Positions 3,858 through 17,144 of a stretch of DNA of 17,374 nt are shown one piece after another. This stretch comes from Myxococcota bacterium (GTDB lineage: Bacteria > Myxococcota > JACRCW01), in NCBI GenBank assembly GCA_040752415.1, contig JBFMGU010000221.1, positions 1 through 17,374 of the forward strand, written 5' to 3'. The translations under genes and the position numbers were made by a program. The notes below the pieces were generated by a model, which was not told the DNA's origin, made no database searches, and saw nothing but the letters and a program-made list of their open reading frames with translations. How positions within the stretch are numbered: the stretch's first letter is position 1; each line of letters begins with the position of its first letter.

Positions 3858-4604
3858 ATGGATCAGGAGCGCGCTCGAGACCTTGGGGAACGGTGGCGTC
3901 GTGCGCGCCGCTCCGCCCTTTCCAGGGTCCTTGCCTGCGCGGGCGGAGACTCCCGCGAGGACGAGCTGGCCCTCGCGGCGCTGCGCGTGGACGAGAACGA
4001 AACGCTTCGGCTGACCTTCGACCACAGCTGGCGCCTGGGCCGCTCCTATGCGCGCCATTTCTCGGAGACCATCTCCCTGGACCAGCTCCCCGACGTGCTG
4101 GCGACGCTGGAGACGCCGTGCCTGGGCGGAAGCTGGCACGCAGGAGAGGACGAGCCGGCCCGTTTCCTCACCCGCGCCGGCTGTGAGTGGGGACGTGACG
4201 CCGGGCTGTGTGATTACTGGCGTGAAGCCGCCGACGGCATGGTGCTGGGCCTTTCCGGGGAGGTCCGGCACACGCGTCACCGCAGCGTGGGTCACGGGGA
4301 CCCGGTCTGCGTGGACGTGCTGTTTGCCGACGCGGACAGCCGGCTGCGCTTCGGCGAGATTCCCGACGAGATGCGGCCCGGGCTGCAGGGCGTGCGCTCC
4401 TCGCTGCGGTTGCTCAACAGCATGCTGGATGTCGAGTTCCTGGGCGTCTCGGAGGGCGTGCTGCTCTACCGGCTGCACCGCGCGGGCTCCGACGACGGTG
4501 GCCTGGCCGTCTCCCAGGTAGTGGAGCAGCAGCTCACCCGGCGCTTTCCCCACGTGAAACCGATGGAATGGACACACCGCGCGGTGTTTGACGCGACTCC
4601 GTGA
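3858..4604 (+). CDS. Hypothetical protein; Cys-motif (V4R/SufR-C-like) domain followed by a NifU-C-like domain lacking CxxC; first gene of the operon
   Basis: The track ORF is 3750..4604 from TTG; ATG 3858 is preferred because it lies downstream of the promoter candidate. C109-x8-C118-x32-C151 ending in SVGHGDPVC; C-terminus LQGVRSSLRLLNSMLDVEFLGVSEGVLLYRL...VEQQLTRRFPHVK. Domain calls are by eye. Confidence 0.75.
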   Translation: MDQERARDLGERWRRARRSALSRVLACAGGDSREDELALAALRVDENETLRLTFDHSWRLGRSYARHFSETISLDQLPDVLATLETPCLGGSWHAGEDEPARFLTRAGCEWGRDAGLCDYWREAADGMVLGLSGEVRHTRHRSVGHGDPVCVDVLFADADSRLRFGEIPDEMRPGLQGVRSSLRLLNSMLDVEFLGVSEGVLLYRLHRAGSDDGGLAVSQVVEQQLTRRFPHVKPMEWTHRAVFDATP

Positions 4605-4633
4605 TGGGGTCGCCCCGATTTTGGAGGCAACGC

Positions 4634-7600
4634 ATGACCCGCAAGGGAAATGGCACCGGATCGACGGGCCATCACGCCGAGGTGGACCTCTTCCGGCGAC
4701 GCATGTTGCAGGGACTGCTGGGCCTGGGTGCCGTGGCGGCGTCGGACGCCGTGGCCGCGCCGCTGCGCTTCTTCAAGCCCATGCACGTCGACAACCCGCT
4801 CGCGCACTACCCCAACCGCGACTGGGAGCGTGCCTACCGCGACATCTTCAAGGCGGACTCCTCCTTCGTCTTCCTGTGCGCGCCCAATGACACGCACAAC
4901 TGCCTCTTGCGCGCCTACGTGAAGAACGGCGTCATCACGCGCATCGGGCCCACCTACGGTTACGGCAAGGCGGAGGACCTCTACGGGAACCGCGCTTCGC
5001 ACCGCTGGGACCCGCGCATCTGCCAGAAGGGACTGGCGCTGGTGCGGCGCATCTACGGCGACCGCCGCGTCAAGGCGCCCATGGTCCGTCGGGGATTCAA
5101 GGCCTGGGCGGATGCCGGCTTCCCGCGCGGCGCCGACGGCAAGCCCGACCCGAAGTACTTCGAGCGTGGCAAGGACAAGTGGCTACGCGTCTCCTGGGAT
5201 GACGCCTATGCGCTGACCGCGCGCGCGCTGGACAACATCACCCGCACCTACTCCGGGCCACAGGGCGCCAGGCTGCTGCAGGCCCAGGGTTATGACCCCG
5301 CCATGGTGGAGGCACTGGAGGGCGCCGGTACGCAGACCATCAAGCTGCGTGGCGGCATGGCGTTCCTGGGCGCCACGCGCATCTTCGGGCTCTACCGCTT
5401 CGCCAACATGATGGCACTGGCCGACGCGGCGGTGCGGGGCGTGAAGCCGGAGGAGTCCGTGGGCGCGCGCGGCTGGGACAGCTACAGCTGGCACACCGAC
5501 CTCCCGCCCGGCCATCCCATGGTGACCGGCGCGCAGACCAATGACTTCGACCTGTTTGCCGTCGAGCACTCCAAGCTCTGCCTGGTGTGGGGCATGAACT
5601 GGATCACCACCAAGATGCCCGACTCCCACTGGCTGACGGAGGCGCGGCTCAAGGGCACCAAGGTGGTGGCCATCACCGTGGAATATAGCGCCACCGCCAC
5701 GAAGGCCGACGAAGCGGTCATCATCCGCCCCGGCACGGACCCCGCCTTCGCACTCGGGCTGGCCCAGGTCATCATCTCCAAGCGCCTGCACGACGACGGC
5801 TGGGTGGCGCGCAACACCGACCTCCCCTTCCTGGTCCGCATGGACACCCTGCAGCCGCTCCGTCCGGCGGAGGTGATTGGCAACTACCAGAGTGCACGTC
5901 CCGCCAACGTCACCTTCCTCAAGAAGGGTGAGAAGGCGCCGCCCGTGGCGCAGCAGAAGATGCAGGTGATTGCCGAGAGCATGGCGGGCGACCTGCAGCC
6001 CTTCGTCATCTGGGACAAGAAGGCCCGCAAGGCCGCCGCGGTGACCCGCGACGACTGGGGCCCCGCGTTCGCCAAGCTGGGGGTGGAGCCCGACGTCCGC
6101 GCGAAGCTGAAGGTGAAGCTCGTCGACGGGAGCGAGGTGGAGGTGCGCACCGTCTTCAGCCTGATGGAGCAGTACCTCAACGAGAACTTCACGCCCAAGC
6201 AGACCGAGCAGATCACCGGCGCGCCCGCCAAGGCCATCGAGTCGCTGGCGGTGCAGATTGCCCGCAACCCGGAGAAGACGCTGTTTGCCATGGGCATGGG
6301 GCCCAACCAGTTCTTCAACAGCGACCTCAAGGACCGCGCGGTCTTCCTGGTGGCGGCGCTGACGCGCAACCTGGGTTTCCCCGGCGGCAACGTGGGCAGC
6401 TACGCCGGCAACTACCGCGCCGCGCTCTTTGGCGGCATGCCCACGTTTGCGCTGGAGGATCCCTTCAACGTCCAGCCCGACCCCGCGGGCAAGGCCAGCG
6501 TGCGCAAGACCATCCACTACGAGTCGCTGCACTACTACAACTACGGGGACCGGCCGCTGCGGGTGGCCAACAAGGTGTTCACCGGCCACGGCCACATGCC
6601 CACGCCCACCAAGGCCATGTGGCTCAACAATTCGAACTCCGTCATTGGCAACGTGAAGTGGCACTATGACGTGGTCCACAACACGCTGCCCAGGATCGAG
6701 CTGATTGCCTACTCGGACTGGTGGTGGACGGGGTCCTGTGAATACTCGGACATCGTCTTTGGCTGTGACAGCTGGGCGGAGTTCAAGCACCCGGACATGA
6801 CGGCGTCCTGCACCAATCCGTTCGTGCAGATGTATCCGCGCACGCCGCTCAAGCGCATCTTTGACACGCGCTCCGACATCGAGATCATCGCCGGCGTCTC
6901 CCACGCGCTGGCCCGGATCTACAACGACCCGCGCTTCAGCGAGATGTTCAAGGGTGTGGCCGAGGACCGCGTGGAGGGCTACCTGCAGCGCATCGTCGAC
7001 GCTTCGCCCGCGCTTCGCGGGTACAAGGTCGAGGATCTGCTGGCGCGTGCGGAGCAGGGCGTTCCCGCGCTGATGAACAACCGCACCTACCCGCGCGCCT
7101 CCTCCTATGAGCAGCAGAAAGGGGAGCAGCCCTGGCACACGCGGTCGGGGCGGCTGGAGTTCTACCGACCGGAGCCGGAGTTCGTGGCCAGCGGCGAGAA
7201 CATGGTGGTCTACCGCGAGCCGGTGGACTCCACGTTCTACGAGCCGAACGTGATCGTGGCGCGTCCGCACCCCGCCATCCGACCGGAGAAGCCGCAGGAC
7301 TTCGGCCTCAGGCCCGACGACCTCTCCACCGAGGCGCGCCAGGTCCGCAACGTGGTGCTCACCGGAGAGGAGCTGTTGCGCAGCAAACACCCGCTGCGCG
7401 CCAAGAACTTCTCGCACATCTATCACACGCCCAAGTACCGCCACGGCGCGCACACCACGCCGGTGGATACCGACTTCACCTCGGTGCTGTTCGGTCCGTT
7501 CGGTGACGTGTACCGCCATGACAAGCGGCTCCCCTCCGTCACCGAGGGCTACGTGGACATGAATCCCGCGGATGCCCGCGCGCTGGGGGTCGACGACGGC

Positions 7601-8134
7601 GACTACGTCTGGGTGGACGCCGACCCCGAGGACCGGCCCTACCGTGGCTGGAAGCCCGGCACCGAGGAGCTGAAGATCTCCCGGCTGCTGCTGCGCGTGC
7701 GCTTCTATCCCGGCACCCCGCGCAACGTGGCCCGCACCTGGCACAACATGTACGGCGCCACCTTTGGCAGCGTGCGCGGACATGAAGGTCGTGAGGACGG
7801 GTTGGCCAAGAACCCGGAGACCAACTACCAGGCCATGTTCCGCTACGGCAGCCACCAGTCCGCCACGCGCGCCTGGCTGCGGCCCACGCTGATGACCGAC
7901 TCGCTGGTCCACAAGGACATGTTCGGCCAGGTCATCGCCAAGGGGTTTGCCCCGGACATCCACTGCCCCGTGGGCGCGCCGCGGGAGGCCTTCGTCCGGT
8001 TTAGCAAGGCGGAGCAGGGCGGCGTCGGCGGGGAGGGGCTGTGGCGTCCCGCGGCGCTGGGCTTCCGTCCCACCTACGAGAACGCCGCCATGAAGCAGTA
8101 CCTGGGCGGTGCCTTCATCAAAGTCCGGTCCTGA
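4634..8134 (+). CDS. nxrA: Type II DMSO-reductase-family molybdoenzyme alpha subunit, periplasmic NXR-like nitrite oxidoreductase/nitrate reductase (1166 aa, Tat-exported)
   Basis: GGAGG RBS at 4623-27, ATG 4634. Tat signal FRRRMLQGLLGLGAVAASDAVAA; NPLAHYPNRDWERAYRD; FS0 motif CAPNDTHNC-x39-C (PRICQKG); predicted Mo-ligand Asp in YSWHTDLPPGHP; IRPGTDPAFALG; HTRSGRLEFY; HTPKYRHGAHT; MNPADARALGVDDGDYVWV. Could equally be annotated narG-like. Confidence 0.92.
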   Translation: MTRKGNGTGSTGHHAEVDLFRRRMLQGLLGLGAVAASDAVAAPLRFFKPMHVDNPLAHYPNRDWERAYRDIFKADSSFVFLCAPNDTHNCLLRAYVKNGVITRIGPTYGYGKAEDLYGNRASHRWDPRICQKGLALVRRIYGDRRVKAPMVRRGFKAWADAGFPRGADGKPDPKYFERGKDKWLRVSWDDAYALTARALDNITRTYSGPQGARLLQAQGYDPAMVEALEGAGTQTIKLRGGMAFLGATRIFGLYRFANMMALADAAVRGVKPEESVGARGWDSYSWHTDLPPGHPMVTGAQTNDFDLFAVEHSKLCLVWGMNWITTKMPDSHWLTEARLKGTKVVAITVEYSATATKADEAVIIRPGTDPAFALGLAQVIISKRLHDDGWVARNTDLPFLVRMDTLQPLRPAEVIGNYQSARPANVTFLKKGEKAPPVAQQKMQVIAESMAGDLQPFVIWDKKARKAAAVTRDDWGPAFAKLGVEPDVRAKLKVKLVDGSEVEVRTVFSLMEQYLNENFTPKQTEQITGAPAKAIESLAVQIARNPEKTLFAMGMGPNQFFNSDLKDRAVFLVAALTRNLGFPGGNVGSYAGNYRAALFGGMPTFALEDPFNVQPDPAGKASVRKTIHYESLHYYNYGDRPLRVANKVFTGHGHMPTPTKAMWLNNSNSVIGNVKWHYDVVHNTLPRIELIAYSDWWWTGSCEYSDIVFGCDSWAEFKHPDMTASCTNPFVQMYPRTPLKRIFDTRSDIEIIAGVSHALARIYNDPRFSEMFKGVAEDRVEGYLQRIVDASPALRGYKVEDLLARAEQGVPALMNNRTYPRASSYEQQKGEQPWHTRSGRLEFYRPEPEFVASGENMVVYREPVDSTFYEPNVIVARPHPAIRPEKPQDFGLRPDDLSTEARQVRNVVLTGEELLRSKHPLRAKNFSHIYHTPKYRHGAHTTPVDTDFTSVLFGPFGDVYRHDKRLPSVTEGYVDMNPADARALGVDDGDYVWVDADPEDRPYRGWKPGTEELKISRLLLRVRFYPGTPRNVARTWHNMYGATFGSVRGHEGREDGLAKNPETNYQAMFRYGSHQSATRAWLRPTLMTDSLVHKDMFGQVIAKGFAPDIHCPVGAPREAFVRFSKAEQGGVGGEGLWRPAALGFRPTYENAAMKQYLGGAFIKVRS

Positions 8135-8151
8135 CCGAGCGGAGACGCGTC

Positions 8152-9285
8152 ATGGCGAAAGTGAAGAACTGGCAGCTCAAGCGCGAGATGGACTACCCGT
8201 ACGACGAGCACCGCCCCAAGCGGCAGTGGTCCATCATCTTTGACCTCAACAAGTGCATTGCCTGCCAGACCTGCACGTTGGCCTGCAAGACGACGTGGAC
8301 CAGCGGCAAGGGCCAGGAATACATGTTCTGGAACAACGTGGAGACCAAGCCGTACGGCTCCTACCCGTTGGCCTGGGATGTGCGCATCCTGGAGAAGCTG
8401 GGCAAGCAGGAGTGGGCCCGGAACGCCACCTACCAGGGCAAGACCATCTTCGAGTCCGCCCCTCCCACGGAGCGCGCGCTGCACTACGCGCCGGTGGACG
8501 AGGACTGGATGTACCCTAACGTTGGCGAAGATGACTGCGCCGGCACCGTCAACCAGGGCGGGCACGTGGGCGCACTGCCCCATGACAAGTGGTTCTTCTA
8601 CCTGCCGCGCACCTGCGCGCACTGCACCTATCCCGCGTGCCTGGCCGCGTGTCCGCGCAAGGCCATCTACAAGCGGGAGGAGGATGGCATCGTCCTCATC
8701 GACCAGTCGCGCTGCAAGGGCTACGGCGAGTGCGTGCGCGCCTGTCCCTACAAGAAGTCCATGTACAACCCGCACACGCGCACCAGCGAGAAGTGCGTGG
8801 GTTGCTACCCCGCCGTGGAGCAGGGCCTGCAGCCGCAGTGCGTGGTGAACTGCATTGGCAAGATCCGGATCATGGGTTTCATCAACCCGCCGTGGAACGC
8901 GCGTGAGGACAACCCGGTCGACTACCTGGTGCACAAGAAGCAGATTGCGCTGCCGTATTATCCCCAGCTCGGCCTGGAGCCTAACATCTACTACATCCCG
9001 CCCATCCACGCGGACCGGGAGTACCTGCACCAGATGTTCGGTCCGCTGGTCGACGGAGCGGTGGAGCGCTACCGCCAGCTGACCAGCGACCCGGTGGCGC
9101 AGGGGCTGCTGGTGTTGATGGGCAGCACCGACCGCATCATCCACGGATTCAAGGTCAAGGATGGCACCGCCCGCGGCTACGACGAGAAGGGCGCGGAGCT
9201 GGTGAGCGTGCCGGTGGTGGAGCCGGTGATGGAGCGCCTGGCCTGGGACGAGAAGCTGGGCGCCGTCCGCAACAACACGCCGTGA
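8152..9285 (+). CDS. nxrB: Fe-S beta subunit (NxrB/NarH-like; three [4Fe-4S] plus one [3Fe-4S] predicted), 377 aa
   Basis: GGAG RBS at 8141, ATG 8152. N-terminus VKNWQLKREMDYPYDEHRPKRQW and KGQEYMFWNNVETKPYG are NxrB-like. Cys groups CIACQTCTLAC, CAHCTYPACLAAC, CKGYGECVRAC, CVGC-x11-CVVNC. No signal peptide. Confidence 0.93.
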   Translation: MAKVKNWQLKREMDYPYDEHRPKRQWSIIFDLNKCIACQTCTLACKTTWTSGKGQEYMFWNNVETKPYGSYPLAWDVRILEKLGKQEWARNATYQGKTIFESAPPTERALHYAPVDEDWMYPNVGEDDCAGTVNQGGHVGALPHDKWFFYLPRTCAHCTYPACLAACPRKAIYKREEDGIVLIDQSRCKGYGECVRACPYKKSMYNPHTRTSEKCVGCYPAVEQGLQPQCVVNCIGKIRIMGFINPPWNAREDNPVDYLVHKKQIALPYYPQLGLEPNIYYIPPIHADREYLHQMFGPLVDGAVERYRQLTSDPVAQGLLVLMGSTDRIIHGFKVKDGTARGYDEKGAELVSVPVVEPVMERLAWDEKLGAVRNNTP

Positions 9286-9296
9286 TGAGGATACCC

Positions 9297-10163
9297 ATGA
9301 GAGCACACAAGTCCCTGGTGCTGGTTCTGTCCACGTTGCTTGCCGCCACCGCGCACGCCGGAGAGCTGCGGGTGGTGAACGCGGGACAGGACGTGTCCGA
9401 CGCCAACCCGCAGGCGTCCTACTGGCAGAAGGCGCCGGTGGAGACGGTGGTGCTGACCGGCCAGCCCATGATCACGCCGCGGCCCGCCACCACCACCACC
9501 ACCACGGTCCAGGTCCAGGCGGTCCACGACGGGCAGTGGGTGGCGTTCCGCCTGCGCTGGAAGGACCCGGAGCGCAGCGGGGCCGGTCGCCTGGGGGAGT
9601 TCTCCGACGCGGCCGCGATCCAGTTCCCCATCAAGGAGGGCCCGCCGCCGCCGGTGTTCATGGGCACCAAGGACAACCCCGTCCACATCTACCACTGGCG
9701 CGCGCAGTACCAGGATGACCGGCTGAAGGGGAAACCGGGCATGCGCGAGCTGTACCCGAACATGGCGGTGGACCTCTATCCGCTGGAGTTCAGCGACCCG
9801 GGACACGTGGGCCGCTTTGACGAGGCGGAGACCGACACCTTCTCTCCCGGCCGGGCTTCGGGCAATCCGCAGTCCTTCGTGAAGACGGGGGTGGATGAGA
9901 TCTACGCGGAAGGTTTCTCCACCAGCTCGGTGCAGGCGGGAAACCGCAGCGTGGCGGATGGCCGGTTCGAGAATGGCGAGTGGACGCTGGTCATTGCGCG
10001 CAAGATGACCTCCGACGGTGGCAGCAAGCTGGAGTCGGGCAAGAAGGGCTACGCGGCGTTTGCCATCTGGCAGGGCGGTCAGGGTGAGGTGGGCTCGCGC
10101 AAGAGCGTCACCATGCAGTGGATCCCCTTTGACGTCGAGACGCCGAGGGAAGCACGTCGATGA
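9297..10163 (+). CDS. Periplasmic heme b gamma subunit (EbdC/SerC/NxrC-like, DOMON/EB_dh domain)
   Basis: GAGG RBS, ATG 9297. Sec signal MRAHKSLVLVLSTLLAATAHA; VQAVHDGQWVAFRLRWKD; FSDAAAIQFP; candidate Met ligand (VFMG) and Lys ligand (AFAIWQGGQGEVGSRKS). No CxxCH and no TM anchor. Confidence 0.88.
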   Translation: MRAHKSLVLVLSTLLAATAHAGELRVVNAGQDVSDANPQASYWQKAPVETVVLTGQPMITPRPATTTTTTVQVQAVHDGQWVAFRLRWKDPERSGAGRLGEFSDAAAIQFPIKEGPPPPVFMGTKDNPVHIYHWRAQYQDDRLKGKPGMRELYPNMAVDLYPLEFSDPGHVGRFDEAETDTFSPGRASGNPQSFVKTGVDEIYAEGFSTSSVQAGNRSVADGRFENGEWTLVIARKMTSDGGSKLESGKKGYAAFAIWQGGQGEVGSRKSVTMQWIPFDVETPREARR

Positions 10164-10867
10164 GCACCGTTCACGCCGACATTGATCGCCAAGCGGTGGC
10201 CTTTGGCCTGGCCTCCTTGTTCACGGCCTATCCCGGCGTGGACTTCCCCGCGCGCCTGGCTGGTCTGCTGCGCCTGGCGCAGGAGACCGGGCTGTTCGCC
10301 TCGGACCCGCCGGCCTTCCTGGCGCGGTTCCAGGATGACCGCTCCCTCGACGATGTGCGCAGCGAATACATTGACGTCTTTGACCGCGCCGCGGAGTCCA
10401 ACGCGCTGTACGAGAGCGCCCACGGGCGCGCGCTGGGCAAGGGCAACACGCTCGCCGACGTGGCGGCCTTCTACCACGCCTTTGGCATGGAGCCCGGCAG
10501 CGACGGGACCGAAGCGGAGATGGTGGACCACGTGGCGATGGAGCTGGAGTTCTATGGCGTGCTCCTCCTCAAGCAGGCCTACCTGACCTCGCTGGGTGAC
10601 GGCGAGGGCGTGCAGATCGTGGGCGAGGCGCGGCGCAAGTTCCTGGACGCGCACCTGGGAAGGCTGGTGCCGGCCATTGCCGCGCGCGCGGAGGTGATGC
10701 GCAGCGCGACCTTTGGCCCCGTGTTCACCTGGTGTGCGTCGCTGGTGCAGCAGGAGTGTGGCGCGCTCGGCGTCAGCCCCGCTGCGCTGGAAGGCTCCCA
10801 CGGGGAAGCGGAAGGCGACACGGTGGAGTGCGGCGCGACGGTGGCGCGGCTCCCCGTGCTGTCCTGA
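10160..10867 (+). CDS. TorD/DmsD-family redox enzyme maturation chaperone (delta subunit)
   Basis: EYIDVF...LYES, LADVAAFYHAFG, EMVDHVAMELEF, RKFLDAHLGR motifs. ATGA overlap with the gamma gene. Confidence 0.92.
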   Translation: MSTVHADIDRQAVAFGLASLFTAYPGVDFPARLAGLLRLAQETGLFASDPPAFLARFQDDRSLDDVRSEYIDVFDRAAESNALYESAHGRALGKGNTLADVAAFYHAFGMEPGSDGTEAEMVDHVAMELEFYGVLLLKQAYLTSLGDGEGVQIVGEARRKFLDAHLGRLVPAIAARAEVMRSATFGPVFTWCASLVQQECGALGVSPAALEGSHGEAEGDTVECGATVARLPVLS

Positions 10868-10883
10868 GGGCGGGGAGGAACAC

Positions 10884-11897
10884 GTGCGGCTCCAGGTGCT
10901 CCAGGGACCAGGTCGGCTTGCGGATCCCGCGGGACGAACGCTGCACTATCTCCGCCTAAGCGTGACCGACGCCTGCAACTTCCGCTGCGTCTATTGCCTC
11001 CCCAACGGCTACCAGAAGGGCGGCTGGAACGAGGAGCCGCTCTCCACCGACGAGATCCGGCACCTGGTGTCCGGGCTGGCGGAGCTGGGCGTGTTCAAGG
11101 TGCGCCTCACCGGCGGTGAGCCCACCGTGCGTCGCGACATCGTGGAGGTGGTGCGCGCGGTGGCGGGTGTGCCGGGCATCCGGACCGTGGCGCTCTCCAC
11201 CAACGCCTGGCGCTTGCGCAAGTTGGCGAAGCCGCTCGTCGAGGCGGGGCTGCACTCGGTGAACATCAGCCTGGACAGCCTGGACCCGGCCGCCTTCCAC
11301 CAGATCACCGGGCAGGACCGTCTGCACCACGTGCTGGCTGGGATTGACGCCGCCATTGCCGCCGGGCTGCGGGTGAAGCTCAACGCGGTGTTGCTGGAGA
11401 CGGTGCTGGCCGAGCGGCCGCGGGTGCTGGACGCGTTCCTGGCGTACGTGCGCACGCGTCCGGTGGTGGCGCGCTTCATCGAGCTGATGCGCACGGGCGG
11501 GAACGCGGCGTTCTTCGAGCGCAACCACGTGGACCTGGAGGGCGTCCGTGCGCGCCTGCTGCGGGACGGGTGGGAGCTGCGCGCGCGCCGGGATGGCGAC
11601 GGACCCGCGGAGGAGTACGTGCACCCCGACAGCGTGGGAGGCGTGGGGCTCATTGCGCCCTACCGCAAGGACTTCTGCGCAAGCTGCAACCGGCTGCGGG
11701 TGACCTCGCGCGGGGAGCTGCGGCTGTGCCTGTTTGGGGAGGGCAACCACCCGCTGCGGCCCCTGCTCGCGGATGCGTCCAGTCGGGATGCGCTCGTGCG
11801 TGAAGTGCAGCGCCTGACGTTCGCCAAGCCGCCGGCGCATCGTCTGCACGAGGGGCGGACCGGTGGCGCCCTCAACCTTTCCCTGATGGGTGGATGA
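10884..11897 (+). CDS. moaA: GTP 3',8-cyclase (molybdenum cofactor biosynthesis radical SAM)
   Basis: GGAGG RBS and GTG 10884; YLRLSVTDACNFRCVYC; KVRLTGGEP; VNISLDSL; FIELM; FCASCNRLRVTSRGELRLCLF; C-terminal GG. Confidence 0.96.
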   Translation: MRLQVLQGPGRLADPAGRTLHYLRLSVTDACNFRCVYCLPNGYQKGGWNEEPLSTDEIRHLVSGLAELGVFKVRLTGGEPTVRRDIVEVVRAVAGVPGIRTVALSTNAWRLRKLAKPLVEAGLHSVNISLDSLDPAAFHQITGQDRLHHVLAGIDAAIAAGLRVKLNAVLLETVLAERPRVLDAFLAYVRTRPVVARFIELMRTGGNAAFFERNHVDLEGVRARLLRDGWELRARRDGDGPAEEYVHPDSVGGVGLIAPYRKDFCASCNRLRVTSRGELRLCLFGEGNHPLRPLLADASSRDALVREVQRLTFAKPPAHRLHEGRTGGALNLSLMGG

Positions 11898-11945
11898 AAC
11901 CCCGTGGCCGCGTTGGCGGCACCATGAAGAACAAGGAGAAGAGAA

Positions 11946-12326
11946 GTGAAGATCGCACTCGCACTCGGTAGCGCCCTGTTGGTTCCGGTCCTGGCCCTGG
12001 CCGCGCCCCCCCAGAAGAGCCCGGAGCTCCTGGGGAAGGGCAAGACGTCCTTCACCACCAATTGCGTCCTGTGCCACGGCGAGAAGGGGGACGGAAATGG
12101 CCCGGCCGGCGCACAGATGAATCCCAAGCCGCGCGATTTCTCCGATGTCAAGTCGTACAAGAACGGGTCCAAGCCGGAGCAGATCTTCAAGACGCTGGCG
12201 GAAGGCATCCCGGGTTCGGCCATGGTGCCCTTTGCCCACCTGTCCGAGGAGGAGCGCTGGGCGCTGGCGTATTACGTGGCCGACACGTTCCACAAGCCGG
12301 CCGGCAAGGCCAAGGGCAAGAAGTAG
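11946..12326 (+). CDS. Secreted mono-heme class I cytochrome c
   Basis: AAGGAG RBS, GTG start, signal peptide; CVLCHGEKGDGNGP; PKPRDF; distal Met in GIPGSAMVPF; Lys-rich. Confidence 0.93.
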   Translation: MKIALALGSALLVPVLALAAPPQKSPELLGKGKTSFTTNCVLCHGEKGDGNGPAGAQMNPKPRDFSDVKSYKNGSKPEQIFKTLAEGIPGSAMVPFAHLSEEERWALAYYVADTFHKPAGKAKGKK

Positions 12327-14026: not shown

Positions 14027-16921
14027 TCAGAACTCCGCCGAGACGCCGAAGATGGGCAGGAACGGGAGCACCGAGAGCGGCACCGCGTTGCGGTAGCGGT
14101 AGTCCCAGCTGATCTGCTCGGCGTTCTTCTGGTTGTAGACGTTGATGAGGTCGCAATAGAGGTTCACCAGCCAGTTCTGGAACGCCATCTTGTAGTCAAT
14201 GCGGATGTCCAGCTGGTGGAAGGTGGGCATGCGGTCGCTGCCGCCGGGACGCTGGGTGGCCTCGTACTCGTCGGTGTCCAGGTCGTGGTAGACGCCCTCA
14301 TAGAACGCGGTGGGGTTGCCGCTGACCAGCCGGAAGCGACCACCAATGGACCAGTCCCCGGCGAGGATGGACCACGCGGGGCTCCACAGCCAGCCCTTGG
14401 GCAGCTTCCCGGTGTTGGCCCACTCACGGAACGGCAGGTGCCAGGGGACCTTGTACTGGCCCACGATGGTGAGGATGTGTGTCTGGTCGTACTCGAAGAG
14501 CTGCCATTCCTCGCCGGGGCGCTCCTTGGACTCACTGCGGCTTAGCGTATAGGCAATCCAGCCGAAGAACTGCTTGCTCAGCTCATGGCGCAGCATGAAG
14601 TCCGCACCGTACGCGCGGCCAATGCCCTCATTGCTGGAACGCTCCAGCTCGACGACACCGTTGTTGGTGGTGAAGCGGCTGCTGGAGACCACCATCTCCT
14701 CTCGGTCATTGAAGAAGGCGTTGCCGGCCACGGTGAGGCGCCGTGCCAGGCGGTGCTCAAACCCCACCACGTAGTGGCGCGCGCGCTCCGGCCACAGCTT
14801 GGGCTGACCGAAGGTGGGGCTGACGCTGAACTGCTGCGGGGCCTGCTCGTAGACGCCATAGGCGGCCTTGAGGACGGTGTCCTTGATGGGCTCCCAGCGC
14901 AGGGCAATGCGCGGCGTGGGCTGCAGGCGGCGCGTGAACTGCCCGTACTTGTAATAGTCAAGGCGGAAGCCGGCGATGATCTTCAGCCCCAGGATGGGCC
15001 CCATCTCCGCCTCGACGTACGGCGCGGCATTGACGGAGACGCTGTCCTCCTTGGTGGTGGCAATGGTGGAGAACACCGCGCTGGGACGGCCCACCACGCG
15101 CGGGAACTCCGGCGCCAGGGCAATAGGGCCGCTTAGGAATGCCCCGAAGTCCGGCAGCGTGGCTTCCAGCTCGGTCTGGGTGGTCTGGTAGTCCGCGCCC
15201 AGGGTCAGCGCCAGGACGTCCAGCAGCTGGTAGCGCAGCTCATTGCGCGCCCCGAACACGCGCTCCACGTTGCCAATGCCCAGGCTGAACGCGCCGCCGC
15301 CGAATCCCGCGGTGAGGTCATTCATGCCGGCAAAGACCTGGAAGCTGTTGGTGAGCCGCGGGTGGATGCGGTAGTCCCATTTCCCGACGATGCGGTGGAA
15401 CTGCGTGTGCGCCGAGAGGCCGAACTGCCCCGCGTCCTGGCCGCCGGCGGCAATCACGCGCAGGTAGTCGTCGCTGCCGAAGGTGAACAGCGAGAAGGTG
15501 TGCGCGGAGAGCGGGCGGTATTCCAGCTTGGCCTGGTAGTCCCAGTACACCGGCGCCACGGTGAGCGCGCCCGCGCCGGGCGGGAGGAAGATGGACAGCG
15601 CAAACGGGATGATCGCGTCAATATAGGAGCGCCTTCCTGCGGCGGCGAAGGTCACGCGACGGGGATTGGGCGCGTCGCTGTCCACCGGATCACCCCACAA
15701 CGTCACCGGCCCGCCGAAGAAGAAGCCGCTGTCAAACAGGTCCACCTCCGCGTAGCCGCGGTACTGGTCGAAGCGCAGGTTGCGCGACTTCACGTCGACG
15801 ATGCCCGCGGTGGCGCGCCCGTACTTGGCACCGAAGCCGCCGGGGTAGAAGTCAATGGTCTCCAGGAACTCCGGGTTGACGACGGAGGTCAGCCCACCAA
15901 AGTGGTACAGCAACGGCACCTGCACGCCGTCCATGTACACGCCACTGCTTTCCGGTGAAGCACCGCGCACCAGCAGCTGCCCGCCCAGCAGCGGCGCGCG
16001 CGCCATGCCGGGGAGGTTCTCGATGGCGCGCAGCGGGTCGCCAAAGGTGCCGGCCACCTGGCTCACCTCTTCCCGACGCAGCACCACGCGCTGCACTTCC
16101 TTGGCGGGCTTGCGGTCGCGCACCACCGTCTCGAACTTGTTGTAGCTGCGACGCGGCAGGAAGAAGATGGCCTCCACCGCCTCGTCCTCGCTGAATTCCT
16201 CGACGGTGGTCATCTGCTCATAACCGGTGGCGCTGATGCGGATGAGCTTCTGACCGGGCGGCACTCCCGCCATCTCGAAGCGACCATCCTTCCCGGTGGC
16301 CACCACCTCCACGTTCCCATCCCCGAGCTCGACGGCAATCTCCGCGTCGGCGATGGGACGTTTGGTGCCGGCCTCACGCACCAGGCCGCGGAAGTTGACG
16401 AGCTTCTCCTCCTCCTCCACCGGGGCGGGCGCGGGTGCGGGGATTCCCTCGGGAGCAGGCGCGGGCGGCGGGGCCACCACCACCTTGCGCACCTCCTCCT
16501 TGAGGACGAAGGTCTGGCGATAGTCGAGCTGGATGGGGGCGGGGACGCCGTTCACCTCCGCGGGCTCGAAGACGAAGTTGGCCACCGCGCCCATGGCGGC
16601 GTAGTCCAGGTCCACGCCGGCGGACTGCAGGATGTCCACGCGCTGGACGTAGCCTTCCTCGTCAATGGTGATGCGCAGCGTGACGGCGCCCTGGCGTCGC
16701 TCCGCCTTGGCGCTCTCCGGGTAGATGACCGGCACCTGGTGGACCAGGCGTGGCGGCTTGGTGAGGCGGGGCGGCTCCTCGGGCTCCTGCTGCTTCTCGA
16801 CGTCACGCATGCCCGGCTGCGCTTCAATCTGCGCGTGTGCCGCGGGAGCACCCAGGAGCAGCGCTCCGACGAGAAATCTGCTGATGCCCAGGTTGATTGC
16901 GCTGCTGGAGGATTGCGCCAT
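14027..16921 (-). CDS. TonB-dependent receptor with an N-terminal TonB C-terminal domain and a carboxypeptidase-regulatory-like domain
   Basis: ATG 16921 with GGAG RBS; signal peptide ...LLLGAPAAHA; TonB_C (YPESAKAERRQGAVTLRITIDEEGYV...FEPA); Pro-rich linker; GLVREAGTKRPI...GRFEMAGVPPG; plug GDPLRAIENLPG...VYMDGV...IDFYPGGFGAKYGRATAGIVDV; barrel ending GVSAEF. Confidence 0.93.
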   Translation of the reverse strand: MAQSSSSAINLGISRFLVGALLLGAPAAHAQIEAQPGMRDVEKQQEPEEPPRLTKPPRLVHQVPVIYPESAKAERRQGAVTLRITIDEEGYVQRVDILQSAGVDLDYAAMGAVANFVFEPAEVNGVPAPIQLDYRQTFVLKEEVRKVVVAPPPAPAPEGIPAPAPAPVEEEEKLVNFRGLVREAGTKRPIADAEIAVELGDGNVEVVATGKDGRFEMAGVPPGQKLIRISATGYEQMTTVEEFSEDEAVEAIFFLPRRSYNKFETVVRDRKPAKEVQRVVLRREEVSQVAGTFGDPLRAIENLPGMARAPLLGGQLLVRGASPESSGVYMDGVQVPLLYHFGGLTSVVNPEFLETIDFYPGGFGAKYGRATAGIVDVKSRNLRFDQYRGYAEVDLFDSGFFFGGPVTLWGDPVDSDAPNPRRVTFAAAGRRSYIDAIIPFALSIFLPPGAGALTVAPVYWDYQAKLEYRPLSAHTFSLFTFGSDDYLRVIAAGGQDAGQFGLSAHTQFHRIVGKWDYRIHPRLTNSFQVFAGMNDLTAGFGGGAFSLGIGNVERVFGARNELRYQLLDVLALTLGADYQTTQTELEATLPDFGAFLSGPIALAPEFPRVVGRPSAVFSTIATTKEDSVSVNAAPYVEAEMGPILGLKIIAGFRLDYYKYGQFTRRLQPTPRIALRWEPIKDTVLKAAYGVYEQAPQQFSVSPTFGQPKLWPERARHYVVGFEHRLARRLTVAGNAFFNDREEMVVSSSRFTTNNGVVELERSSNEGIGRAYGADFMLRHELSKQFFGWIAYTLSRSESKERPGEEWQLFEYDQTHILTIVGQYKVPWHLPFREWANTGKLPKGWLWSPAWSILAGDWSIGGRFRLVSGNPTAFYEGVYHDLDTDEYEATQRPGGSDRMPTFHQLDIRIDYKMAFQNWLVNLYCDLINVYNQKNAEQISWDYRYRNAVPLSVLPFLPIFGVSAEF

Positions 16922-17144
16922 CGACGCTCCACACGCCCCGCGGCAACGGCTAACACCCTCCTCCCGCGACGACAAGAGAGGAGACCCGCCCGTCCGCCAG
17001 GATGTGCTTCACATTTCTTCATGATTCCCGGTGGCGCAAGGACGTCGTCGCGGCGCCGGGCGGTCACGACGTCCCAACGCTTGGGAAGCAACCCGCGGCC
17101 GGATTGTTGTTCCAGGGACCGGTGGGTGGGAGAGGAGGACCAGC

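Follow-up and report, generated by a model that had tools for sequence, protein, structure and literature searches.

A periplasmic molybdoenzyme operon in a Myxococcota genome and its predicted place in the sister clade of the nitrite oxidoreductases of Nitrospira, Nitrospina and anammox bacteria

Periplasmic nitrite oxidoreductase (NXR) has been solved structurally from Kuenenia stuttgartiensis, and passages of that report assign C67, D71, C75 and C115 of the alpha subunit, NXR-A, as ligands of the FS0 cluster, N70 as the substrate-coordinating residue, D275 as the molybdenum ligand and Met155 and Lys305 of NXR-C as the haem ligands (PMC8387239). The NXRs of Nitrospina, Nitrospira and Kuenenia share 54–62% mutual identity (PMC3578206), and passages of the Kuenenia report put its enzyme at ∼40% identity to those of Nitrotoga and Hydrogenobaculum (PMC8387239). 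Kitzinger et al. 2018 describe a sister clade to the classical periplasmic NXRs, in which the 'Ca. Nitrotoga fabula' NXR and the characterised periplasmic nitrate reductase (NAR) of Hydrogenobacter thermophilus stand beside numerous uncharacterised proteins of diverse phyla (PMC6050957). Excerpts on the nitrate-respiring isolate Thermogutta terrifontis describe its only nitrate reductase (Nar) as a 'deep lineage' alpha-beta-gamma-TorD set adjoining bc1 genes (PMC5673643), and passages of a further paper report NXR homologues in the same organism (PMC12758564). We have examined a 17,374-base contig of a Myxococcota genome (JBFMGU010000221.1 of assembly GCA_040752415.1; hereafter the window, meaning the whole stretch), in which seven tightly packed, head-to-tail genes on the + strand at 3858–12326 encode an enzyme related to these systems.

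The operon enzyme is a real, intact, periplasmic molybdoenzyme of the NXR/NAR type, and sequence comparison places it in the sister clade of the Nitrospira, Nitrospina and anammox NXRs, outside that clade. Among solved structures, the best relative of alpha is Kuenenia NXR-A (7B04_B), matched with 924.5 bits (E 9e-277) over residues 30–1175, compared with 179 bits for PcrA, 121 for EbdA and 116–121 for NarG. Similarly, beta is closest to Kuenenia NXR-B (382 bits, with PcrB at 232, EbdB at 214 and NarH at 168) and gamma to NXR-C (85 bits, with EbdC at 75). Thus closest similarity does not lie with the Ebd/Ser/Clr/Pcr/Ddh group, as judged from the solved PcrA and EbdA against NXR-A. Alpha does carry the general characters of the family of type II dimethyl sulfoxide (DMSO) reductases, an Asp molybdenum ligand in Y-x4-D and an N-terminal FS0 motif, accompanied by a twin-arginine leader on alpha, a four-cluster Fe-S beta, an EB_dh haem-b gamma and a TorD-like chaperone. 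All NCBIfam sub-family scores for the type II proteins of the operon fall below their cut-offs, alpha reaching 150.5 bits against 1084 for the NarG model TIGR01580, 141 against 2000 for the EbdA model and 299 against 985 for TIGR03479.

The residues expected to bind cofactors and substrate are retained. The FS0 motif of alpha is CAPNDTHNC followed by x39-C, so that an earlier reading of this DNA made from the letters alone (the sequence-only reading) was exact in giving C82-x3-D86-x3-C90-x39-C130, numbered from the ATG at 4634. Asn85 adjoins the FS0 Asp86, and alpha therefore displays the three Cys and one Asp with a neighbouring Asn that characterise FS0 in the strict NXR clade. The presumed molybdenum ligand is Asp289 in Y-x4-D-x11-QT (YSWHTD...QT), a residue invariant in the alignment. 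From the first residue on, alpha can be aligned with Kuenenia NXR-A and beta with NXR-B, in keeping with the NXR-like N-termini previously proposed for both. The alpha N-terminus consists of RRR followed by a hydrophobic stretch, aligned with the leader region of Kuenenia NXR-A for the twin-arginine translocation (Tat) pathway; because the Pfam TAT_signal model gave no match on alpha, it is this motif and alignment that suggest Tat export and on which the Tat signal of the sequence-only reading is retained. Beta has 16 Cys and no signal peptide, is presumably exported together with alpha, and lacks two insertions of Kuenenia NXR-B, one of them of 8 residues. Gamma, which is without a transmembrane anchor, bears a Sec-type signal peptide and contains an EB_dh haem-b domain; its Met126 and Lys273 line up with Met155 and Lys305, the haem ligands in Kuenenia NXR-C. 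Because active-site and cofactor ligands are conserved, the enzyme very probably handles nitrate and nitrite.

Trees of alpha were constructed from the window's sequence, 74 full-length alphas (>1050 aligned residues) from 84 loci, 31 hand-picked database proteins, E. coli NarG and five NarG-type metagenome proteins, one extra open reading frame (ORF) of 943 residues being dropped. FastTree was applied to 115 rows and IQ-TREE in quick mode (LG+G4) to hand-picked sets of 63 and 39 rows, and all support values are of the SH-like kind. True NXRs were represented by metagenome-scan hits named by exact look-up: Nitrospira P0432, P0439 and P0447, a protein of a Nitrospinota metagenome-assembled genome (MAG), P0467, and the Kuenenia-like P0123, a 50%-cluster representative that scores 1590 bits against Kuenenia NXR-A (7B04). 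Two of these anchors fall in 90% clusters named Nitrospira or Nitrospirales, one cluster including Nitrospira sp. Kam-Ns4a. Kuenenia itself, Nitrospina gracilis, Nitrotoga, Hydrogenobacter, SerA, ClrA and DdhA are not among the rows.

The anchors fall in a clade, N, with a support of 100, comprising Nitrospira, the Nitrospinota MAG, Kuenenia-like Planctomycetota, a Tectomicrobia protein and a second Myxococcota paralogue. The window's alpha is located in clade M, the sister of N, with a support of 97–99 and with agreement between FastTree and both IQ-TREE runs, and N and M are joined with a support of 100. Within clade M, SAR202 is basal, followed by Gaiellaceae (Gaiellales), Acidobacteriota, Planctomycetota, Thioploca, Thioalkalivibrio thiocyanoxidans ARh2, Halobacteriales and the window's alpha, and the clade also spans Myxococcota and Bdellovibrionota. 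Outside N and M lie an all-Cys-FS0 group (Halorussus, Obscuribacterales, Thermincola), next the pNarG of Haloferax mediterranei and next the cytoplasmic NarG group. Long-branch warnings touched the deep rows P0221, P0232 and P0260, not the N/M split.

Identities and motifs follow the same division. Alphas are at least 50% identical within M and ∼48% or more within N, compared with 36–42% between M and N. The window's alpha is 37–39% identical to Nitrospira NxrA, 42% to the Nitrospinota MAG protein, 41% to P0123 and 26% to E. coli NarG, and its 37–42% thus does not reach the ∼54% level of the strict clade. In every sequence checked, the residues after the molybdenum-ligand Asp read DLPPGHPM in M, DQ.P in N and DLPPAS in NarG, so that the strict-clade signature W-H/R-G-D-Q-x-P is replaced by WHTDLPP in the window. 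The strict Nitrospira/anammox type assigned by the sequence-only reading is consequently not upheld, as alpha falls outside clade N, its molybdenum-ligand motif is another one and the NxrB insertions are absent. The alternative offered in that reading, an enzyme sister to NXR, matches the alpha trees, and the distinction it drew between an NXR-like Asp-FS0 enzyme and NarG is supported by scores far from NarG, Ebd and Pcr and by a tree position outside NarG. Grouping inside NarG or the haloarchaeal pNar is likewise not observed, the trees placing the window's alpha elsewhere, in clade M. Clade M probably corresponds to the published Nitrotoga/Hydrogenobacter thermophilus sister clade (PMC6050957). 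This is something we infer, because no Nitrotoga or Hydrogenobacter sequence is in the trees and the Nitrotoga-type QM motif occurs in none of their sequences, QT being present in the window and in all ∼100 sequences checked.

The operon genes (Table 1) were assigned by Pfam and NCBIfam searches, and this family content, together with intergenic gaps of 17–48 bases or otherwise start/stop overlaps, bears out the previous description of seven closely spaced, co-oriented genes. The beta-gamma junction is TGATG and the gamma-chaperone junction ATGA; the alpha ATG has GGAGG just before it, and moaA starts with GTG, preceded by GGGGAGGAA. MoaA is the first step in molybdenum cofactor synthesis. The gene order is found again in three other Myxococcota genomes, and whole or in part in 80 named loci, a recurrence which indicates that the arrangement is not chance. 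A promoter and terminator scan returned a number of sites no higher than in shuffled sequence.

Table 1. Genes of the operon, with positions in the window.
Gene product	Position	Strand	Family or remark
'unk', accessory protein, 248 amino acids (aa)	3858–4604	+	no Pfam/NCBIfam family; predicted cytoplasmic
alpha, catalytic subunit with molybdenum bis-molybdopterin guanine dinucleotide (Mo-bisMGD), 1166 aa	4634–8134	+	Pfam Molybdopterin
beta, Fe-S subunit, 377 aa	8152–9285	+	Fer4_11 / type II DMSO-reductase beta
gamma, haem-b subunit, 292 aa	9285–10163	+	EB_dh, PF09459, E 6e-32
TorD/NarJ-family maturation chaperone	10160–10867	+	Nitrate_red_del PF02613, E 6e-13; TIGR03482 71.5 bits, below cut-off
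MoaA, GTP 3',8-cyclase	10884–11897	+	TIGR02666, 305 bits vs 284 cut-off
cytochrome c, monohaem class I, signal peptide, CVLCH	11946–12326	+	Cytochrom_C PF00034, E 3.5e-13

Homologues of the operon genes were counted in the 80 named loci on the same strand and within 7 kb of alpha, many of these loci being cut by contig ends. Beta is represented in 68 loci, gamma in 64, the chaperone in 56 (in each case after gamma), MoaA in 22 and the cytochrome c in 10, the last including the closest Myxococcota loci, L013 and L015. In 26 loci of the window's own sub-clade, for which 82 of 116 candidate ORFs were scanned, the genes located past the chaperone are MoaA in 14, MoeA in 10, a MoaC-Mog-type fusion in 8, a MOT1-type molybdate transporter in 4, a cytochrome c in 3 and a MobA-like protein in 2. 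The operon can be termed self-contained because the cassette brings its own cofactor supply. In the Bdellovibrionota loci L023, L025, L030 and L032, the chaperone is followed by moaA, a moaC-mog-type fusion, a MOT1-family molybdate transporter and moeA; these loci are full enzyme, cofactor and molybdate-uptake cassettes.

The most original feature of the operon is its first gene, 'unk', a sub-clade-specific accessory gene. Counting loci with at least 900 bases of DNA upstream of alpha, a homologue immediately precedes alpha in 31 of 35 loci whose alpha is at least 65% identical to the window's (for example L013:8111–8863 and L023:8209–8979) and in 0 of 44 below 65%, and none was found at the clade-N metagenome loci examined. 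'unk' is therefore a sharp marker of the window's alpha sub-clade. As for the window protein itself, no Pfam match was obtained for any of the 31 homologues. C88, C109, C118 and C151 are invariant in the 31 sequences, as are several Arg and Gly. In an AlphaFold2 model (predicted local distance difference test, pLDDT, 93.5), residues 1–165 resemble a V4R/Bet3/DmpR-PoxR sensor/H-NOX-like fold (VIA Z 8.0–8.5; Foldseek E ∼3e-3) and residues 167–240 a NifU C-terminal/CnfU-like domain (VIA Z 8.3); Foldseek gave no match of the model against the Protein Data Bank (PDB) at E ≤1e-3. Such middling scores for a predicted structure would name a fold, not a function, and 'unk' may act in enzyme maturation or in sensing. 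In the Bacteriovoracaceae operon L023, a NirK gene 70% identical to the host NirK (6956–7846, - strand) stands divergently beside the four-Cys gene.

The host is a member of the Myxococcota and not a known nitrifier. The window is the entire contig C137 of an 11.0-Mb, 520-contig genome estimated at 96.8% completeness and 4.3% contamination. Contig and genome have G+C contents of 67.5% and 68.9%, respectively, with a tetranucleotide correlation of 0.987 that ranks 37 of 259 contigs; another genome with a window-type operon (G010, on contig C40) is placed in the same phylum; and the named homologues of a flanking TonB-dependent receptor are nearly all 'Deltaproteobacteria bacterium'. Phylum call, receptor homologues and contig composition thus agree with the Myxococcota-type host that the sequence-only reading had proposed. 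That reading had also called for a search for carbon fixation and terminal oxidases. Two aa3-type oxidases and one fused cbb3 oxidase are present, and no RuBisCO large subunit was found in this 96.8% complete genome; the ATP-citrate lyase marker PF16114 had no match in the host nor in the control genomes, so that this search is uninformative. The host further encodes a NapA-like protein (863–871 bits, cut-off 904), NirK (over cut-off), NrfA and formate dehydrogenase, and the NXR-like alpha occurs in a single copy. A second, unrelated type II DMSO-reductase alpha of 961 aa (TIGR03479 791 bits, below cut-off) is encoded in the host at G000:C445:9783–12665 on the - strand, and ORFs of ∼960–1000 aa resembling it, as judged by the narG-model hit pattern only, are present in many of the 22 Myxococcota genomes that carry an alpha of the ≥69% type.

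Enzymes of this type are widespread. A protein search with alpha gave 2916 relatives at E ≤1e-20 among 7999 scored, and the best 120 protein clusters are all 70–79% identical to the window's alpha, the named ones belonging to Myxococcales, Myxococcaceae, Polyangiaceae, 'Deltaproteobacteria', Oligoflexia and Bdellovibrionota. A scan of one genome per species returned at least 600 stretches, of which 592 were confirmed, so that an alpha with this FS0-motif type occurs in at least 592 species genomes; the best 80 of the 592 stretches are 52–76% identical and span >15 phyla, including the isolate Thioalkalivibrio thiocyanoxidans ARh2 (L064), the alpha of which is 59% identical. In an even sample of 401 Myxococcota genomes, one of them (G211) unpublished, a match at E ≤1e-100 is observed in 29 (∼7%), in 24 of 323 high-quality genomes and in 8 of 35 families, a patchy spread typical of gene transfer. 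The enzyme is therefore not rare, close relatives being present in hundreds of public genomes of >15 phyla. Passages of published work had also already reported NXR-like genes in non-nitrifier MAGs of Proteobacteria, Chloroflexota and Armatimonadota (PMC9306079), of Verrucomicrobiota and Planctomycetota (bioRxiv 10.1101/2020.05.19.103440) and of Gemmatimonadota, Acidobacteriota, Actinomycetota and Desulfobacterota (PMC12687941), in each case with direction left open. In the full-text literature, passages retrieved by the search contained nothing on the Myxococcota enzyme or the upstream four-Cys protein, supplementary trees lying outside the search.

Several individual relatives were observed in the course of these scans. 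An alpha 73% identical to that of the window, P0094, is located on a contig of 8,996,458 bases (Joint Genome Institute, JGI, source), which is of closed-genome scale and could come from an isolate. Some Myxococcota contain two NXR-like operons (G010, on contigs C40 and C49, loci L007 and L009; also G364 and G375), one copy being of the window type (73–74% identical) and the other of the Nitrospira/Kuenenia-like clade (40–42%); the gene order in L009 is cytochrome c, cytochrome c, gamma, alpha, beta, chaperone. Plasmid 2 of Natronococcus occultus SP4 (L235) carries at 5995–9198 a 48% identical alpha that is missing from the PLSDB gene table. Its frame opens only past the FS0 motif, with annotated beta and TorD genes after it, and it is probably a pseudogene.

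With respect to function, we favour, at about an even chance, a cytochrome-c-linked, reversible nitrate/nitrite oxidoreductase that serves in vivo mainly as a respiratory nitrate reductase. Substrate, direction, export route and electron partners are what we infer in the following scheme. A soluble periplasmic alpha-beta-gamma molybdoenzyme would act on the nitrate/nitrite couple. The TorD-like chaperone would help alpha to receive Mo-bisMGD, with the operon's MoaA feeding the cofactor pathway; alpha would gain its Asp-ligated FS0 cluster and then be exported by Tat, carrying beta along, and gamma would leave via Sec, holding a Met/Lys-ligated haem b. Electrons would pass between molybdenum, FS0, four Fe-S clusters, haem b and a soluble cytochrome c, for which the operon's cytochrome c is the likely partner of gamma. 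In nitrate respiration, electrons of quinol would enter a bc-type complex, move on via cytochrome c and reach the enzyme, which would hand them to nitrate, in a heterotrophic, oxidase-rich host. The enzyme is probably reversible.

The inclination towards nitrate reduction derives largely from relatives. In another part of clade M, genes for a Rieske protein (14 of 83 loci), cytochrome b (15 of 83) and a multi-domain cytochrome c (19 of 83) lie directly upstream of alpha, as in L059:2848–6554, L051, L060, L073, L080 and L083, where the cytochrome c is three-domain, and these bc-linked loci are laid out like the characterised Haloferax mediterranei pNar operon. In one of them, from a Thermogutta MAG, Rieske, cytochrome b and cytochrome c genes precede an alpha that shows 56% identity to the window's and shares its FS0 and molybdenum motifs, an arrangement matching that described for the Nar of nitrate-respiring T. 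terrifontis. Among the 22 carriers, NarG over cut-off is observed in 3, a near-full NapA-like match in 3 and neither in 18, which therefore have no other nitrate reductase of these kinds. In the carrier G361 (L236, G361:C210, 8707–18472), co-oriented genes downstream of the operon comprise a ScdA/hemerythrin gene (YtfE/RIC-type), an FeS_assembly_P gene, genes for a Haem_bd protein and a redoxin, a YtkA-like gene, a porin gene of the alginate-export type, nrfH and nrfA. DLPP after the molybdenum-ligand Asp is common to the window and the NarG group, and the host is a heterotroph in which no RuBisCO was found.

A number of observations weigh against this interpretation. Direction is not readable from sequence, and passages of the structural report state that the Kuenenia NXR works in both directions (PMC8387239). 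In the available sections of Kitzinger et al., the sister of the clade to which the window would belong consists of NXRs only (PMC6050957). The window's own sub-clade has no bc genes adjoining the operon, and it is by gene order only that the Thermogutta MAG locus would correspond to the T. terrifontis gene. The figure of 18 of 22 carriers has no phylum background rate beside it, and the host already possesses a NapA-like enzyme. NrfA (E ≤1e-30) is present in 7 of 22 carriers compared with 189 of 401 genomes of the phylum sample and is thus not enriched, and near the operon in 83 loci NirK occurs once, RIC three times and NrfA not at all, indicating no general linkage. Finally, two aa3 oxidases, one cbb3 oxidase and the operon's cytochrome c would together also serve nitrite oxidation.

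The last point leads to the reverse assignment, a nitrite oxidoreductase in vivo, in which periplasmic nitrite would be oxidised and electrons would pass via gamma and the operon's cytochrome c to cbb3 or aa3, providing a heterotroph with extra energy (lithoheterotrophy) or removing toxic nitrite. This is somewhat unlikely, yet much of what is described above is consistent with it: clade M is nearest to the bona fide periplasmic NXRs; Asp-FS0, Asn and a high-potential-type Met/Lys haem b are held in common with Kuenenia NXR; the operon includes a cytochrome c gene and the genome encodes cbb3 and two aa3 oxidases; and the NapA-like protein provides a separate candidate nitrate reductase. The sub-clade is also frequent in Bdellovibrionota, which are mostly aerobic. 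The sister clade of the classical NXRs holds the Nitrotoga NXR, and in the available passages its uncharacterised members are argued to be able to oxidise nitrite (PMC6050957); however, as the trees contain no Nitrotoga sequence, membership of that clade is only probable. Further points run counter to nitrite oxidation, namely that no RuBisCO was found in the host, that no known nitrite oxidiser is present among the named carriers sampled, that the molybdenum-site motif is unlike that of the Nitrospira/Kuenenia-like clade, that relatives are tied to bc complexes in the fashion of pNar, and that one locus is tied to nrfHA and a RIC gene.

A wider form of the same idea, which we regard as unlikely, is that the cassette serves heterotrophic and in part predatory lineages (Myxococcota, Bdellovibrionota and others) for aerobic nitrite oxidation via cytochrome c and cbb3 or aa3, and that these so constitute an unrecognised, non-autotrophic, nitrate-forming guild. 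The cassette would then unite the enzyme, the synthesis of its cofactor, a molybdate transporter in some of the genomes, and a dedicated four-Cys V4R-like factor, the last being a new sub-clade-specific factor for maturation or sensing.

Action on another substrate, such as chlorate, perchlorate, selenate or a further oxyanion, is improbable. Type II DMSO reductases form a versatile family with other members that act on such substrates, NCBIfam assigns alpha at sub-family level only and below cut-off (TIGR03479), and no assayed member of the sister clade is found among the named loci, in so far as the literature passages searched extend. Against this, alpha retains the substrate-coordinating Asn next to the FS0 Asp, the matching residue in ethylbenzene dehydrogenase being Ile according to passages of the structural report (PMC8387239), and PcrA and EbdA score far under NXR-A; the same report also describes assays of the Kuenenia NXR with selenate, chlorate and other substrates (PMC8387239). 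That the contig is mis-binned and derives from a nitrifier or anammox bacterium is very improbable, for although the window is an entire 17.4-kb contig of a fragmented MAG with some estimated contamination, its composition and flanking receptor fit the host, the closest alpha homologues are on contigs of at least 330 kb of Myxococcota genomes, and Nitrospira NxrA is merely 37–39% identical.

The window holds further genes outside the operon. A histidine kinase/NarL-type regulator lies upstream at 514–2345 and is not counted as part of the system, a homologue of it being beside the operon in 0 of 80 loci. The flanking outer-membrane TonB-dependent receptor (14027–16975, - strand) has an unusual N-terminal TonB_C domain before CarboxypepD_reg, Plug and barrel, an architecture kept in >100 protein clusters of which the named ones are mostly 'Deltaproteobacteria'. 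At 1–120, a short tandem duplication causes the same 11 residues to be read twice within a - strand ORF (1–807) of a repeat-rich, Cys-containing, secreted-protein type.

Genome surveys often score any 'nxrA-like' gene as nitrification potential. The present results indicate that a large clade beside the true NXRs, spread by gene transfer, sits in ordinary heterotrophs, and that its context in relatives points to nitrate respiration at least as much as to nitrite oxidation. If the direction were settled in a single culturable carrier, annotations in hundreds of genomes would be calibrated, and it would become clear whether nitrite oxidation without autotrophy exists. As a conserved partner, the V4R-like protein with its four Cys provides an untouched handle on the maturation or regulation of such enzymes.

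Among known systems, E. coli NarGHI belongs to the same superfamily and has an Asp molybdenum ligand and DLPP after it, but is 26% identical, has His in FS0 and no Tat leader, and its third subunit is the membrane protein NarI rather than an EB_dh gamma. Haloferax mediterranei pNarGH (plasmid pHM300) is an outward-facing, non-cytoplasmic nitrate reductase; it has an EB_dh-type third subunit, a TorD chaperone and upstream Rieske and cytochrome b genes, as in 14–15 of 83 clade-M loci. It differs in identity (∼27% over 48% of the window's alpha), the window operon is without bc genes, and the trees put the H. mediterranei NarG beside P0232 and close to the NarG outgroup, a long way from clade M. 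For T. terrifontis, the gene order 'NarGHI-TorD next to bc1' given in excerpts of its description would equal that of the Thermogutta MAG locus; those excerpts call the enzyme cytoplasmic, and the window's sub-clade has the four-Cys gene in place of bc genes.

The Nitrotoga/Hydrogenobacter clade resembles clade M in its sister position to the strict NXRs and in its distance from Kuenenia, ∼40% in the passages available compared with 36–42% between M and N here. Nitrotoga is reported in those passages to be without the 8-residue beta insertion, as is the window's beta, and differs in having QM after the molybdenum motif where the window has QT. The Nitrospira and Nitrospina periplasmic NXRs share with the window alpha, beta, an EB_dh-type gamma, a TorD-like chaperone, the FS0 Asp motif and a periplasmic orientation (PMC3578206). 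They are set apart by identity (Nitrospira NxrA 37–39%, the Nitrospinota MAG 42%) and by a window host with no detected RuBisCO. Kuenenia NXR-ABC (PDB 7B04; Chicano et al. 2021, PMC8387239) likewise differs from the window enzyme in identity (∼40%), in clade, in DQAPGHPF where the window has DLPPGHPM, and in the two Kuenenia beta insertions that the window's beta lacks; on its side no upstream four-Cys homologue was found at the clade-N loci examined, NXR-T not having been searched for. Nevertheless, it is the best solved match for all three subunits and shares with the window enzyme a Tat-type alpha, an FS0 of three Cys and one Asp accompanied by Asn, a molybdenum Asp in Y-x4-D-x11-QT and a soluble gamma with a Met/Lys haem b.

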